Origin: an uncultured Gammaproteobacteria bacterium
GTDB taxonomy: Bacteria > Patescibacteriota > Patescibacteriia > JAHIZJ01
Direction of reading: 5' to 3'
DNA: 64,000 bases
NCBI GenBank assembly: GCA_964371245.1
Contig: CAYJKP010000001.1
Location: 571,042-635,041, forward strand
Shown here: positions 3,609-63,220 of the stretch, one piece after another
Layout of the letters: each line of letters begins with the position of its first letter
Position numbering within the stretch: the first letter of the stretch is position 1
Program-made: the position numbers and the translations under genes
Notes under the pieces: generated by a model
The model's input: only the letters and a program-made list of their open reading frames with translations
What the model was told of the DNA's origin: nothing
Databases searched by the model: none

Positions 3609-4628
3609 CTAGTCTTCAGACGACGGTTTCTCGATCTGTCCCGTGTCGTTGTTTCCCTTCTGGCCGGTAATTTTGTAGACGTCCTTGTCGATTTTCTTAA
3701 ATTCCTTCGTGGCCGTGTTGTAGGTGTTTACGGTCGTCGACAGCTGATTGCCGATCCGACGATGATACTCATAATAGGCCGTTAAATGTTTCGCCATTTG
3801 TTCAACATTGGCTTGTATTTCTTTGGCCGATTCTTCGATCTGAAGCGCGCGCAGACCCTGGAGAACCGTTTGTAAATAGGCAAAAAATGAGGTCGGCGAG
3901 ACGATCATGACGCGTTTATCGCGAAAGGCGTATTCGATTAAATCACGGGTATTTACTTTAATGGCGCCGACTTGATTGACCAGTAAATCGTAATAGATCG
4001 CCTCGGCCGGAATAAACATGAACGCGAAGTCCATTGTCCCCTCTTCCGGACGGATGTATTTCGAGGTCTCATCAATCCGATTCTTGAGATCTTGTTTAAA
4101 TATTTTTTCCAGATCAGCGCGTTGAACCGGGTCCTTCGTCTGAAGAATGCGGTTATAATTCTCAAGTGAGAATTTTGAATCGATTGGGATGATCTTTTTT
4201 CCGACAAACACGGCCGCATCGACAATATCGCCATTTTTGAAACCATACTGCAGCTGATATGCTTTCGGCGGCAAAACGTTTTTCAAGACCGTTTCAAGAT
4301 AATATTCCCCGAGAATGCCGCGTTGTTTCGGATTTTGGAGAATGTCCTGCAAATTTTGTAATTGGTCGGCGAAATCAATGACTTGTCTGGTTGTTTCCGT
4401 CACCCGCGTGAGCTCCCGATGGACATCGAGTAAACGGTCCTGCACCACCTTCTGCATGCCTTGAATATTCTGGTTCACCAGGTACATCGGGTCCCGCATC
4501 GCATCCTGCTTTTCGCGTTGCTGTTGAAGCAATCGTCGCTGTTGTCCGGCCACGAGAATAATAACCGCCGTAAACCCGGCGATTAAACATGCAATAACGA
4601 CGATAAACCAAATAATATTCACTGTCAT
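3609..4628 (-). CDS. rmuC: DNA recombination protein RmuC
   Basis: A 339-aa protein has an N-terminal transmembrane helix and a long coiled-coil, then an RmuC-type C-terminal domain. Confidence 0.8.
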   Translation of the reverse strand: MTVNIIWFIVVIACLIAGFTAVIILVAGQQRRLLQQQREKQDAMRDPMYLVNQNIQGMQKVVQDRLLDVHRELTRVTETTRQVIDFADQLQNLQDILQNPKQRGILGEYYLETVLKNVLPPKAYQLQYGFKNGDIVDAAVFVGKKIIPIDSKFSLENYNRILQTKDPVQRADLEKIFKQDLKNRIDETSKYIRPEEGTMDFAFMFIPAEAIYYDLLVNQVGAIKVNTRDLIEYAFRDKRVMIVSPTSFFAYLQTVLQGLRALQIEESAKEIQANVEQMAKHLTAYYEYHRRIGNQLSTTVNTYNTATKEFKKIDKDVYKITGQKGNNDTGQIEKPSSED

Positions 4629-60696: not shown

Positions 60697-61200
60697 TCAC
60701 AAGGGCTTTTCTTTTCCAATATTTCCCAACACTCCTTCTGCGAACTTTTGAGCTCGTCGACAATCACGAGTGTTCGGCCGACCGCGATATAAGCCGCCGA
60801 TGTATCTAAATATCCCCCAGCTATCCCAACCCGGGCAATCATATTCGCCAATGATCCGGTATTTTTTGTCCACCAGTATCCGGCGCAACTCTTGGTGGCT
60901 GCCGAACCAGGCGCCGTGAGTTGAAAATATAAAAACAGGGAAACCCACGCGTTCAGGCAGCCGGCCGGCAAAATCCAGCAGCGCCTGGTGGTGTTTCCAA
61001 AAATAAATACCCGAACCAAAACCGACCAAATCATATTCCATAACTTCTTCGGGTTTTATCGTAAACGGCTTCCTCAAATCGGCCGACAAAACATCGCCCA
61101 TTTTCCGGGCGATGGTTTCTGTATTCTGGTGGTGGATTGATTGGTAGATGATGAGCGTCTTCACTATATTTATCTCATCGGTTGTATTCACTCGGCTCAA
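60697..61200 (-). CDS. Flavodoxin-like fold protein
   Basis: KTLIIYQSIHHQNTETIARKM and the FSTHGAW region fit flavodoxin_2-type domains. Confidence 0.65.
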   Translation of the reverse strand: MSRVNTTDEINIVKTLIIYQSIHHQNTETIARKMGDVLSADLRKPFTIKPEEVMEYDLVGFGSGIYFWKHHQALLDFAGRLPERVGFPVFIFSTHGAWFGSHQELRRILVDKKYRIIGEYDCPGWDSWGIFRYIGGLYRGRPNTRDCRRAQKFAEGVLGNIGKEKPL

Positions 61201-61228
61201 CTTAATTTATTACTACTCATGACAAGTT

Positions 61229-61320
61229 TGGCTCCGGGGCAGGGACTCGAACCCCGATACCTGCCTCCAAAGGGTGGTGTCCCCGCCTCCGCGGCGGATC
61301 GCCGATGAGGCGACTACCGT
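61229..61320 (-). pseudogene. Degenerate tRNA 3' fragment (T-arm, acceptor 3' strand, CCA) carrying copy 1 of a 40-bp hairpin repeat in its D-region. It lacks a 5' acceptor strand.
   Basis: The minus-strand RNA reads ...GGUA[R]GGACACCACCCUUUGGAGGCAGGUAUCGGGGUUCGAGUCCCUGCCCCGGAGCCA. The anticodon stem has two mismatches. Its 3' acceptor strand is complementary to the 5' fragment at 61741-61796. Confidence 0.4.
61279..61318. repeat. Forty-base-pair GC-rich direct repeat, copy 1 (gtccccgcctccgcggcggatcgccgatgaggcgactacc)
   Basis: It matches 61741-61780 at 39 of 40 positions and is internally hairpin-forming (GCCTC...GAGGC, CGGCG...CGCCG). Confidence 0.8.
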
Positions 61321-61332
61321 TTATCCTCCAAG

Positions 61333-61403
61333 CTCGGGGACCAGGATTCGAACCTGGATAACCACCTCCAAAGGGTGGTGTCCTACCGTTAGACGATCCC
61401 CGA
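61333..61403 (-). tRNA. tRNA-Gln (anticodon TTG), CCA not encoded
   Basis: Folded by eye. The acceptor pairs UCGGGGA with UCCCCGA (U1:A72), the discriminator is G73, the D-arm is GUCU/GGAC, the anticodon stem is CCACC/GGUGG with loop CUUUGGA, and the T-arm is CCAGG-UUCGAAU-CCUGG. Confidence 0.8.
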
Positions 61404-61422
61404 GCCTGAATGACAAATTATT

Positions 61423-61698
61423 CTACGTTTCAATGAGCTTAGTATCTTTAAGATACGATTTGATTTTATCACGTAATATTTCTCTACCGTACCCTGACTT
61501 AAAAAATATTTCCGCCTTTACTGCATCCTCTTTTACGGCGTAGGCCTCATAAAAAGCGAGTTCAAAGGGTCTTTGTTTTCTGGTATAGCCGCCTCCGATA
61601 CCGAGATTATGTTCGCGCACTCTTCGCTCAATATCACAGGTACTTCCTACATATAGGCTGTTTGTTTTCAAGCTTCGTAAAACATACACGTACCACAT
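61423..61698 (-). CDS. GIY-YIG nuclease family protein (YhbQ/YazA-like, ~92 aa)
   Basis: MWYVYVLRSLKTNSLYVGSTCDIERRVREHN...YTRKQRPFEL matches the GIY-YIG domain. The N-terminal extension in the ORF track (to 61800) only translates the tRNA-like fragment and was trimmed. Confidence 0.75.
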   Translation of the reverse strand: MWYVYVLRSLKTNSLYVGSTCDIERRVREHNLGIGGGYTRKQRPFELAFYEAYAVKEDAVKAEIFFKSGYGREILRDKIKSYLKDTKLIET

Positions 61699-61740
61699 AA
61701 TAACCTTATTGCTCTCCCTGCAATCTTCCAAAATGATCCG

Positions 61741-61780
61741 GTCCCCGCCTCCGCGGCGGGTCGCCGATGAGGCGACTACC
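61741..61780. repeat. Forty-base-pair GC-rich direct repeat, copy 2
   Basis: It matches 61279-61318 at 39 of 40 positions. Confidence 0.8.
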
Positions 61781-61796
61781 ATTAGACGACCCCGGA
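61741..61796 (-). pseudogene. tRNA 5' fragment (acceptor 5' strand UCCGGGG, D-stem, D-loop) followed by copy 2 of the 40-bp repeat; no anticodon or T-arm
   Basis: The minus-strand RNA reads UCCGGGGUCGUCUAAUGGUA[R]GGAC then unrelated sequence. It is flanked by a 7-bp inverted repeat GATCCGG/CCGGATC. Confidence 0.4.
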
Positions 61797-61891
61797 TCAA
61801 AAACCGCTATTATTATCGACACCCACCGCGCCTACAAACAAAAAATGGGCGTATCACCCATATCCTAGCAAACAATCGAAGTTTTTTCAAC

Positions 61892-63220
61892 TCATTTAAG
61901 AAATAAATAAATTATACTCGCGATGGCGACAATAATCATGAAAATAGTAATTATCCATCCCAGAACATTTACTGGCCGATTATTGGCGTATTCACCCAGG
62001 TGTTTTTTGCTGCTGCTGATAAGCATGATAAAAACCATCAGGATGGGCGCGATAATGCCATTAAGAATGGCCGCGTAAATCAACGCCTTGATCGGATCGA
62101 GACCGATGAAATTGATGGCAAAACCAATGACAATGGCGGCAATAATCACACCATAAAAAGCGTAGGCGTTTTTTAATTTCCGATAGAGTCCTTCGTGCCA
62201 ACGAAAACTTTCTGAAAATGCATAGGCGGCTGAACCAGCTAAAACCGGTATCGCCAGCAGTCCGATCCCGATGATACCAACGGCGAAAAGAAGGGTGGCA
62301 TACTGTCCAGCGAACGGCCGAAGCGCCTCAGCGGCCTGAGCGGCAGTGTCGATGTTCATAATTCCCGCCGGGTGTAAAACCGCTCCCGTTGTTAAAATAA
62401 TAAAAAACATGACGATATTTGAAAAGAACATACCGGTCCAAACGTCCCGGCGCATGGCCTGGATCTCCGGCCAATTATCTTCTTGCGATCGGGCTTTTAT
62501 CGTCGTTTGGCCGCCTAAGATTTCTTCCTCGACTTCTTGGGAGGCCTGCCAAAAAAAGAGGTACGGCGAAATAGTCGTGCCAAGAATGCCACAAATCAGG
62601 AGGATTTGATCACGCGATAATTGCAGTGACGGGATAACGGCTCGACGCGCGACTTCTCCCCAATCAACGCCTTTGAGCGTTAAGGCGGTAATCACATAGG
62701 CAAGCAAAACAAGGGCCAATATTTTCAGTACTTTTGAATACTTGCGATACGAGGTGAATATTTCCAAAATCAGCGTTACCACGGTAAAGCCGATGAGCAA
62801 TATGGCGTATTTTAATTGGGGAGCTAACAGTTTCGTCGCCTCGGCCATGGCGCCGAGATCCGCACCGATATTAAACGTATTGGCAATAAATAACAGCACC
62901 GTGCAAAGATACAGCATCCAGCGAGGAAAGTGGAGGCGAATATTGGCCGCTAAGCCACGGCCAGTAACCAAGCCAATCCGGGCGCACATTTCCTGGACGA
63001 TCGTCATGAACGGAAACGTAAATGCCGCCAACCAAAGGAGCTGGAAGCCGAAACGGCTCCCCGTTTGCGAATATGTGGCGATACCGGACGGATCATCGTC
63101 GGCCGCCCCAGTCGTTAAACCAGGACCGAGTTGATGCCAAAACCGGCCCAGCCTTCTCAAACGATTGGATATGTTGGGACGGCGAGGGTTTGGCTTTACG
63201 GTTGGTGGTTTTTTTGGCAC
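61892..63220 (-). CDS. mntH: NRAMP family divalent metal (Mn2+/Fe2+) transporter
   Basis: The DPGN-type motif GAADDDPSGIATYSQTG is present. 442 aa with about 11 transmembrane helices. Confidence 0.9.
   Translation of the reverse strand: MPKKPPTVKPNPRRPNISNRLRRLGRFWHQLGPGLTTGAADDDPSGIATYSQTGSRFGFQLLWLAAFTFPFMTIVQEMCARIGLVTGRGLAANIRLHFPRWMLYLCTVLLFIANTFNIGADLGAMAEATKLLAPQLKYAILLIGFTVVTLILEIFTSYRKYSKVLKILALVLLAYVITALTLKGVDWGEVARRAVIPSLQLSRDQILLICGILGTTISPYLFFWQASQEVEEEILGGQTTIKARSQEDNWPEIQAMRRDVWTGMFFSNIVMFFIILTTGAVLHPAGIMNIDTAAQAAEALRPFAGQYATLLFAVGIIGIGLLAIPVLAGSAAYAFSESFRWHEGLYRKLKNAYAFYGVIIAAIVIGFAINFIGLDPIKALIYAAILNGIIAPILMVFIMLISSSKKHLGEYANNRPVNVLGWIITIFMIIVAIASIIYLFLK

Follow-up and report, generated by a model that had tools for sequence, protein, structure and literature searches.

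We analysed a 64,000-nucleotide (nt) stretch of a Patescibacteriota genome from the candidate phyla radiation (CPR), which we call the window (contig CAYJKP010000001.1 of assembly GCA_964371245.1, positions 571,042 to 635,041). On its minus strand a resident transfer RNA (tRNA) gene, tRNA-Gln(UUG), has been interrupted by a segment that carries a GIY-YIG nuclease gene. The segment measures 494 nt (61776-61283), was inserted between A21 and G22 of the resident gene, and is made up of a GC-rich hairpin repeat (R), a short leader, the nuclease gene, a foreign 'type B' tRNA-Gln(UUG), a spacer with a B-type D-loop and a second R. It is probable that the segment is a homing-type GIY-YIG/hairpin element which targets tRNA genes and brings a replacement tRNA with it, and that it invaded the resident tRNA-Gln(UUG) here. 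A sequence-only reading of this DNA had described the minus-strand order as tRNA 5' half, R, GIY-YIG, tRNA-Gln(UUG), R and tRNA 3' half, and every one of these features was located where it had been placed:

61796-61777, minus strand: outer 5' piece of the resident tRNA-Gln(UUG), TCCGGGGTCGTCTAATGGTA, tRNA positions 1-21; 5' strands of the acceptor stem and D-stem, then the D-loop as far as GGTA
61776-61745, minus strand: R1, the left copy of R, 32-nt core GTCGCC TCATC GGCGAC CCGCC GCGGA GGCGG, between GGTA and GGAC of the D-arm
61744-61699, minus strand: leader from R1 to the open reading frame (ORF), GGAC plus 42 nt, with a purine-rich stretch ahead of the ATG
61698-61423, minus strand: GIY-YIG nuclease ORF, 91 amino acids (aa), ATG at 61698, stop ending at 61423; Pfam PF01541, E=1.4e-17
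61403-61332, minus strand: inner intact tRNA-Gln(UUG), type B; called by ARAGORN, Rfam RF00005 63.1 bits
61320-61417, minus strand: inverted repeat around the inner tRNA from a repeat search, 21-nt arms at 61397-61417 and 61320-61340, 81% complementary
61331-61315, minus strand: spacer TTGGAGGATAAACGGTA, 17 nt, ending in the B-type D-loop AACGGTA (resident type AATGGTA)
61314-61283, minus strand: R2, the right copy of R, one base different from R1 (C to T)
61282-61229, minus strand: outer 3' piece of the resident tRNA-Gln, GGAC...CCCCGGAGCCA, tRNA positions 22-76, CCA encoded

The two R copies occupy the same spot between GGTA and GGAC. The direct repeat they form, previously put at 40 bp, is 43 nt long with 41/43 positions identical, and takes in the D-loop AAYGGTA and the D-stem GGAC. 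R occurs exactly twice in the window compared with zero expected from shuffles. The acceptor strands of the outer pieces, UCCGGGG and CCCCGGA, are complementary as had been reported, and ARAGORN called the halves joined without R as tRNA-Gln(UUG); single halves, or the join with R kept, gave no tRNA-Gln(UUG) call. Run in intron mode on the R-containing join, ARAGORN returned a 'tRNA-Pro(cgg) with intron', which we judged to be spurious. On the locus as it stands, ARAGORN and Rfam recognised the inner tRNA alone; at E<=10 all other Rfam matches were at chance level. The outer 5' piece matches the inner tRNA at 17/20 positions and the outer 3' piece is 81% identical to the 3' part of the inner tRNA. 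The inner tRNA begins 19 nt after the stop of the nuclease ORF, and its acceptor stem is extended by ~9-14 bp through the inverted repeat, which also flanks the inner tRNA at two related loci (L106 and L214) and may represent a stem used in processing or a palindrome in the DNA. Promoter-like or terminator-like sites nearby were found only at 61890-61845, upstream of the outer 5' piece. In the leader, the TTTGGA after GGAC bears a weak resemblance to a tRNA-Gln anticodon arm and is possibly its relic; at loci L032 and L112 the anticodon arm is still recognisable in the stretch after R.

The ORF at 61698-61423 is the sole GIY-YIG ORF of the window. The ORF list begins it at a TTG at 61800, inside the tRNA piece, which gives 125 aa, and we replaced this by the ATG at 61698 as the relevant start. 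Public calls begin within R and the tRNA remnant (window 61698-61800). The called product, P0001, is 119 aa long with its start inside R and was found on more than 20 contigs on record; the exact 91-aa form was absent from the records, where the product is the 119-aa one. At other loci the N-terminal extensions of related proteins translate tRNA T-arms (GSNPT..). These miscalled starts are systematic mis-annotations for which the element is responsible.

Direct repeats of 43 nt together with two similar tRNAs could mislead an assembler, and an assembly chimera here had been named as a finding that would refute the earlier reading. The 751 nt across the arrangement were 100% identical in contigs of seven samples from two assembler pipelines, and 99.9% identical in another one. 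Contigs carrying the identical 751 nt reach 918 kb, with one of 1.18 Mb on record. In L127, five C-to-A or T-to-A differences fall at a contig end and look like assembly errors. An assembly or binning artefact can for practical purposes be dismissed.

To place the insertion in its ancestry, relatives were found via the neighbouring Nramp transporter and their contigs were fetched. The sister species L212/L213 (GCA_041650335.1) has an Nramp that is 96% identical and the same gene order as the window, FtsX and Nramp on one side of the locus and flavodoxin and NUDIX on the other. At the orthologous spot it carries an uninterrupted tRNA-Gln(UUG) (ARAGORN; Rfam 60.3 bits). The GGTA/GGAC junction is also unbroken in L216 (Nramp 88%) and L217 (71%), and none of the three relatives (L212/L213, L216 and L217) has R at the homologous site. 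The site is therefore polymorphic for presence and absence, filled in the window species and empty with an intact gene in these relatives, which is the outcome of the comparison with relatives that the sequence-only reading had proposed. The sister tRNA-Gln equals the joined window halves at 72/74 positions, whereas the inner tRNA differs from the resident/sister tRNA at 17/74, so the outer pieces are the resident gene. Piece by piece, 20/20 nt of the outer 5' piece are identical to the intact gene of L212/L213, and also to L216 and L217, and 52/54 positions of the outer 3' piece match the sister gene. MAFFT had placed the sister tRNA with the inner copy; direct comparison identified the outer halves as its true orthologue. 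The earlier proposal that both halves stem from one gene interrupted by a GIY-YIG plus tRNA-Gln segment is thus borne out by the sister gene, while the idea that the segment arose by local duplication of the resident gene is not supported, given the 17 differing positions. The hairpin had also been thought to reside in the D-region before the interruption. Since the three relatives have an R-free, uninterrupted junction, both R copies came with the insert. The invasion of the resident gene is recent in the window lineage.

A fourth relative, L214 (Nramp 81%), is filled at the same locus. It has the resident 5' stub, a B-like intact tRNA and a homologous spacer (TTGGGAGATGG...ATCGGTA). An R copy showing three mismatches follows, then decayed parts of a tRNA in which other hairpins occur, and the 3' end is again of the resident type; there is no ORF. 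This locus is a degraded version of the insert. As L214 is filled in this degraded form and closer relatives are empty, the tRNA-Gln gene was probably invaded more than once. Separately, L212/L213 carries another insertion of ~617 nt (~3998-4615) exactly at the 3' end of its intact tRNA-Gln, bounded by a 7-nt direct repeat GGAGCCA and containing one ORF of 180 aa that had no match in Pfam, NCBIfam or PADLOC. The same tRNA gene has thus been targeted by a second, unrelated element.

The right junction of the insert is chimeric. The two differences between the sister gene and the joined window halves are adjacent (tRNA positions 27 and 28, TG to CA), lie 5-6 nt from R2, and both changed bases have the state of the inner tRNA. 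By simple arithmetic the chance of both changes hitting the inner state is (17/74 x 16/73) x (1/3)^2 = ~0.006. The first ~19 nt of the outer 3' piece (GGACACCACCCTTTGGAGG) are of the inner-tRNA type and the remainder is of the resident type. The D-loop before R2 is inner-type (AACGGTA), whereas the left junction retains the resident T (AATGGTA). The outer anticodon stem has two mismatches because its strands come from two tRNA types, the 5' strand CCACC from the inner and the 3' strand GGCAG from the resident. The sequence-only reading was correct that the join gives a cloverleaf, which ARAGORN calls as tRNA-Gln(UUG), but the anticodon stem that it took for decayed is chimeric and not the product of random decay. 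The right junction looks like a recombination or co-conversion scar. The donor can be read as R2 embedded in a B-type tRNA-Gln, with the left crossover at GGTA and the right one within the shared CCCTTTGGAGG, and the junction would then be a short co-conversion tract of the kind left by homing.

The same junction bears on whether the outer pieces could still be used as a split or intron-containing tRNA, joined for example through pairing of R1 with R2, or as a two-piece tRNA-Gln. Their acceptor strands are perfectly complementary, as they also are at L106 and L177, ARAGORN calls the R-less join a tRNA-Gln, and R is self-complementary so that R1/R2 pairing is possible. Against this, the close relatives have a plain intact gene, recombination has left two adjacent mismatches in the anticodon stem, and an intact tRNA with the same anticodon lies within the insert. 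The outer pieces of most family members lack the tRNA middle or carry extra anticodon-loop or T-loop hairpins, and no intron model of Rfam matched. We also know of no bacterial machinery that would remove a 494-nt insert from a D-loop. We regard a functional split tRNA as very improbable, and the split or permuted gene that had been raised earlier as a minor alternative is to be abandoned on these grounds. Split, permuted and multi-intron tRNA genes are a feature of archaea such as Nanoarchaeum, Caldivirga and the Thermoproteales. The window gene resembles them in its two pieces, in the GC-rich self-complementary sequence at the break and in the non-canonical (D-loop) position, but differs in that it was intact in a recent ancestor, has a mismatched anticodon stem, holds a complete replacement gene between its pieces and involves no splicing endonuclease or bulge-helix-bulge motif.

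The 91-aa protein consists of the GIY-YIG catalytic domain only, and residues Y5, Y16, G18, R26, H30 and E63 are invariant among 23 relatives. Its nearest solved structures are the UPF0213 proteins BH0048 (1zg2, E=1.6e-9) and EF2693 (1ywl, E=1.8e-8), followed by Slx1 (7cq2, E=7e-5); the match to I-TevI was marginal (E=0.39). No NCBIfam model reached its cutoff for the protein (TIGR01453 gave 22 bits vs a cutoff of 56), and a separate DNA-binding domain for long-site specificity was not found in this single-domain protein. These matches place the nuclease, as predicted from its sequence, in the UPF0213/Slx1-like branch of the GIY-YIG superfamily, in agreement with the free-standing YhbQ/YazA (UPF0213) type proposed before. 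UPF0213 proteins resemble it in size and single-domain build (1zg2 and 1ywl; YazA/YhbQ type) and differ in being single-copy cellular proteins with no known mobility or linkage to tRNA genes. The window protein also differs from Slx1, which depends on Slx4 and possesses a zinc-finger domain in addition.

GIY-YIG ORFs are classic intron passengers, and tRNA genes of Patescibacteria commonly contain group I introns (PMC13011429), which made it worth weighing whether the D-loop holds an intron of group I or II that splices itself and encodes a homing endonuclease. No Rfam intron family matched over 60900-62100 even at E<=10, and once 276 nt are deducted for the ORF, 72 nt for the tRNA and 64 nt for the two R copies, only ~80 nt are left, which is too short for a ribozyme core. 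The known Patescibacteria tRNA introns sit in the anticodon loop (PMC13011429). An intron is on this evidence extremely unlikely.

R was searched for in GTDB representative genomes with a degenerate pattern in which the stems were fixed and the loops free, and the figures that follow refer to the 122 copies analysed, among the matches listed. R is a conserved quasi-palindrome of 32-33 nt present at more than 120 loci, nearly all of them in metagenome-assembled genomes (MAGs) of Patescibacteria/CPR, including Saccharibacteria, Paceibacteria/Parcubacteria groups, Microgenomates and Doudnabacteria. This search, which the sequence-only reading had called for, also recovered R in tRNA D-loops beside an intact tRNA copy. 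Outside the CPR, a single Desantisbacteria MAG had 13 or more loci, and an actinomycete gave one match that is probably fortuitous. Several copies per genome occur, for example in MNUP01, VMFZ01, CAYQFQ01 and JAHITU01. With RNA parameters R folds into two hairpins of 5-6 bp (-20.7 kcal/mol), and with DNA parameters into an alternative, one imperfect long hairpin (z=-2.35). Co-variation of the loops, which would have pointed to one long hairpin, was rejected as the loops were complementary at 3.42 positions compared with 3.44 in shuffles. The loop variant GCGGA is present in both window copies and in 0/122 others, and GGAAA is confined to L106. Because such private loop variants are shared, the two R copies of one locus are sister copies and not independent insertions. 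By its distribution, R is best described as a dispersed palindromic mini-element of CPR genomes.

The context of R ties it to tRNA genes and to the nuclease. GGTA precedes R in 33/122 copies and GAC or AGC follows it in 30/122, which is the D-loop context. A tRNA gene lies within 400 nt of R in 51/122, in the same orientation in 48 of the 51, and the commonest isotype is Gln. When only the GGTA-preceded copies are considered, 28/33 have an intact same-strand tRNA within 450 nt. None of the five exceptions is a clear counter-example, since two sit at the edge of a locus, one adjoins a gap in the assembly and the remaining two are unlike tRNA fragments. A GIY-YIG ORF starts -1 to +41 nt downstream of R in 19/122 copies, always on the strand of R.

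R was also found within protein-coding genes. In 45/122 copies it lies in stop-free frames of at least 150 codons, and its 33 nt equal 11 codons. The in-frame copies are mostly read as VASSATRRxGG and include GyrB (L083 and L085) and, at the same site, a TopA-like protein (L033 and L084); further in-frame loci are L023, L047, L054, L070, L093, L095 and L110. In this respect R resembles, by analogy, the Rickettsia palindromic elements (RPE), of which tolerated in-frame copies are a hallmark. In some genomes a longer palindrome (..CACCCGATGTT-R-AT..AAACATCGGGTG..) is centred on R, or R is found inside other local repeats, as at L056, L075 and L117 in VMFZ01 and at L006, L011, L035, L037, L058, L081 and others in the Desantisbacteria MAG MNUP01. 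R is accordingly part of several repeat families, one of them in a non-CPR phylum.

Relatives of the nuclease were surveyed independently of R by a metagenome scan with an alignment of relatives, which gave at least 549 confirmed loci, of which 80 were kept. A tRNA lies within 600 nt of the nuclease ORF at 51/80 loci, with a tRNA density of 0.40 per kb, and at 30 of the 71 loci with enough downstream sequence, a tRNA gene on the strand of the ORF begins no more than 140 nt past it. The isotypes include Ser, Ala, Gln, Ile, Cys, Val, Pro and others. Upstream of the ORF, the first 12-27 nt of that tRNA are repeated without mismatch at no fewer than 14 of 31 loci, with a hairpin module that interrupts or follows the copy, and several loci have a copy of the tRNA 3' end downstream. 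A perfect GC-rich double hairpin occurs within 130 nt upstream of the ORF at 12/80 loci, compared with 0/211 control windows. Its stems vary yet pair (TCGCC, CCACC, GGGCC, CAGCC and GCGCC), and the six R-like loci (L132-L136 and L138) have the second loop GANGA in all and the first loop TCNTC in five. Across the family, R is linked to the GIY-YIG gene, the GIY-YIG gene is linked to a tRNA gene, and the module lies within tRNA remnants.

L106 has the architecture of the window locus (R, GIY-YIG, tRNA-Gln and R). Its outer acceptor strands fit each other and not the inner tRNA, and those of L177 are complementary as well. In the R-based sample the relation of the outer 5' piece to the inner tRNA ranges from 20/20 identical (L021, L039, L057, L114 and L118) to clearly different, and at many related loci the outer tRNA pieces are incomplete. 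The outer 3' remnants of L027, L030, L103, L106, L165 and L177 carry extra short hairpins precisely in the anticodon loop and T-loop and not at random positions. A variant module at L139, L163, L191 and L203 has a copy of the tRNA 5' part through the D-arm upstream of the GIY-YIG ORF, with a hairpin GTCGCC-loop-GGCGAC (..AGAGCGGTCGCCTGAGGCGACAGGTC..) in place of the anticodon arm and directly before the ORF. At L161/L162, from 35 nt past the tRNA-Cys that follows the GIY-YIG ORF, a 5'-truncated pseudo-tRNA-Cys is repeated in tandem as three or more identical units, each with a hairpin GGTGCCGATTCGGCACC in its anticodon arm; from their sequence the units look like a segmental amplification. At L032, two tandem GIY-YIG genes (+41 and +459 from R) flank the inner tRNA-Gln. 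At L131 (the P0006 locus) a nuclease with 62% identity lies directly after dnaX with no R upstream, and is followed by tRNA-Gln(UUG) and, ~130 nt on, by a duplicate of the segment of that tRNA from T-loop to 3' end.

From the sequence comparisons we infer cleavage and mobility, and the homing-type element that we favour may have worked as follows. The first event would be a break made by the nuclease in an intact tRNA gene, within the D-loop DNA or close to it. As it has only an Slx1/UPF0213-type catalytic domain and no DNA-binding domain, it probably recognises DNA structure, either R or the hairpin-prone tRNA gene itself, and not a long sequence; R may be the structure recognised. The break would be repaired by copying the element from a donor flanked by tRNA-Gln pieces, with the conserved pieces serving as portable homology arms. 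In the window, the left junction would have been resolved at GGTA and the right one 7-17 nt into the anticodon arm, with two donor-type bases remaining. The ORF is probably expressed from the resident tRNA promoter. The tRNA of the element presumably replaces the destroyed gene, and the insertion would be tolerated and hard to lose because this tRNA takes over. Because R would occupy the break site on both remnants, no intact target would be left on them.

An alternative to homing is passive rearrangement, in which R would be a recombination-prone dispersed palindrome and ectopic or unequal homologous recombination between R-bearing tRNA copies would have produced the nested arrangement. The GIY-YIG gene would then be carried along passively, or be a UPF0213-type housekeeping gene situated near tRNAs by chance. 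This would require R to be present for recombination and the empty site offers none; the inner tRNA, which differs from the resident gene at 17/74 positions, was not copied from it; and the ORF is consistently inside the insert at a fixed distance and strand relative to R, across many isotypes and CPR phyla, which is hard to obtain with a passenger. We therefore think passive rearrangement unlikely. Several observations nevertheless speak for it. The GGTA-R-GGAC modules are sister copies with a private loop variant, as duplication or recombination at R would give, and tandem pseudo-tRNA arrays such as that of L161 indicate that recombination is active at such loci. In other bacteria, members of UPF0213 are ordinary proteins of the cell. 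No neighbouring GIY-YIG gene accompanies 84% of R copies, which also weighs against homing, since R may spread by other means.

Other points weigh against the homing reading itself. R was not found in the viral contigs of IMG/VR, so that a vector for R is not known. That the window protein cuts DNA is something we infer from its sequence, and the protein is without the DNA-binding domain that gives I-TevI and the Seg enzymes their specificity. The inner tRNA has an intact GGTA/GGAC site, and the immunity of the element's own tRNA is left unexplained by the model, which also does not account for R on both sides of the insert. The exact protein was found at this locus only, which gives no hint of a recent move inside the genome. 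Finally, nuclease domains group according to downstream tRNA isotype, the nearest neighbour sharing it in 18/38 cases vs 6.9 expected, but this grouping is confounded by host relatedness.

The closest known analogue is SegB of phages T4 and T6, a free-standing GIY-YIG homing endonuclease that resides in tRNA clusters and cuts within tRNA genes (PMC2330249; PMC13096335). SegB homing proceeds by break repair with co-conversion of flanking markers and loss of recipient markers, its cuts followed by homologous recombination lead to tandem duplication or amplification of tRNA segments, and its homologues are statistically tied to tRNA genes of many isotypes (PMC2330249; PMC13096335). By analogy, the pseudo-tRNA arrays of L161 and the double ORFs of L032 would fit this behaviour. 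The window shares with SegB a GIY-YIG gene embedded among tRNA genes, and the element would be SegB-like in its working while lying outside that protein subfamily. SegB is a phage protein of ~220 aa with additional DNA-binding parts, whereas the window protein is a 91-aa UPF0213/Slx1-branch catalytic domain. SegB recognises a T-loop motif and its genes lie between tRNA genes, whereas the window insertion is in the D-loop and its nuclease sits inside a split gene. SegB has neither an R hairpin nor a replacement tRNA, and the window host is a cellular CPR chromosome. What is new compared with SegB is thus the location inside a tRNA gene, the full replacement tRNA, the coupled 33-nt dispersed palindrome and the presence in CPR chromosomes.

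Other systems share single traits. Like RPE and like repetitive extragenic palindromic (REP) sequences with their REP-associated tyrosine transposases (RAYT), R is a short GC-rich palindromic dispersed repeat found in intergenic regions, RNA genes and in frame, and is tied to one enzyme gene. RPE are roughly 100-150 nt long compared with the 33 nt of R, R is near-identical over many CPR phyla, and the enzyme linked to R is a GIY-YIG nuclease and not the tyrosine (HUH) transposase of REP/RAYT. Elements that carry a replacement for the gene they enter include integrase islands in the 3' ends of tRNA genes, and endonuclease ORFs of mitochondria that come with a duplicate of the gene end. As in these, an essential conserved gene is hit, its function is restored by the copy on the element and the native remnant stays; the window insert differs in its D-loop site, in carrying a whole tRNA and not just the displaced part, and in its total of 494 nt. 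No tyrosine or serine recombinase gene was found in the insert, which contains the GIY-YIG ORF and the tRNA at a D-loop site. In CPR ribosomal RNA (rRNA) genes, GIY-YIG ORFs have been described in insertions which are unlike introns of either group I or group II and are sparse and not obviously homing (PMC11270868). Those insertions are in rRNA and not tRNA genes, and no R hairpin or replacement gene is described for them. The window arrangement is described neither there nor in the study of Patescibacteria tRNA introns (PMC11270868; PMC13011429), and we found no paper in the searchable literature with the R sequence and none joining GIY-YIG, tRNA genes and CPR in this sense; searches of the literature on UPF0213/YhbQ and on double-hairpin elements likewise gave no account of it. 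The earlier statement that no comparable bacterial arrangement is known thus stands as far as the literature goes, but the arrangement is not unique, since it belongs to a large CPR family.

A broader possibility, which we advance tentatively and with more doubt than conviction, is that these loci represent an undescribed class of bacterial mobile element. Its Slx1/UPF0213-type nuclease would recognise the 33-nt double hairpin, drive its own gene, accompanied by a replacement tRNA, into tRNA-gene loops, and mobilise solo R copies in trans, even in frame into GyrB and topoisomerase genes. Such a system would be comparable to REP/RAYT or RPE, but run by a GIY-YIG nuclease and CPR-wide.

On the homing reading, the locus shows how a selfish element can invade and replace an essential single-copy tRNA gene in a very small genome, and thereby a way for tRNA genes of CPR bacteria to be replaced horizontally. 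It accounts for tRNA fragments, pseudo-tRNAs and GC-rich hairpins in CPR assemblies, and for miscalled ORF starts. It also brings to light a 33-nt palindrome that is conserved across phyla and tolerated within essential proteins, and it links the UPF0213-type GIY-YIG family, which is widespread and of obscure role, to a testable activity on tRNA-gene or hairpin DNA. If the nuclease is indeed structure-specific for R, the element would be among the smallest self-mobilising nuclease systems known.

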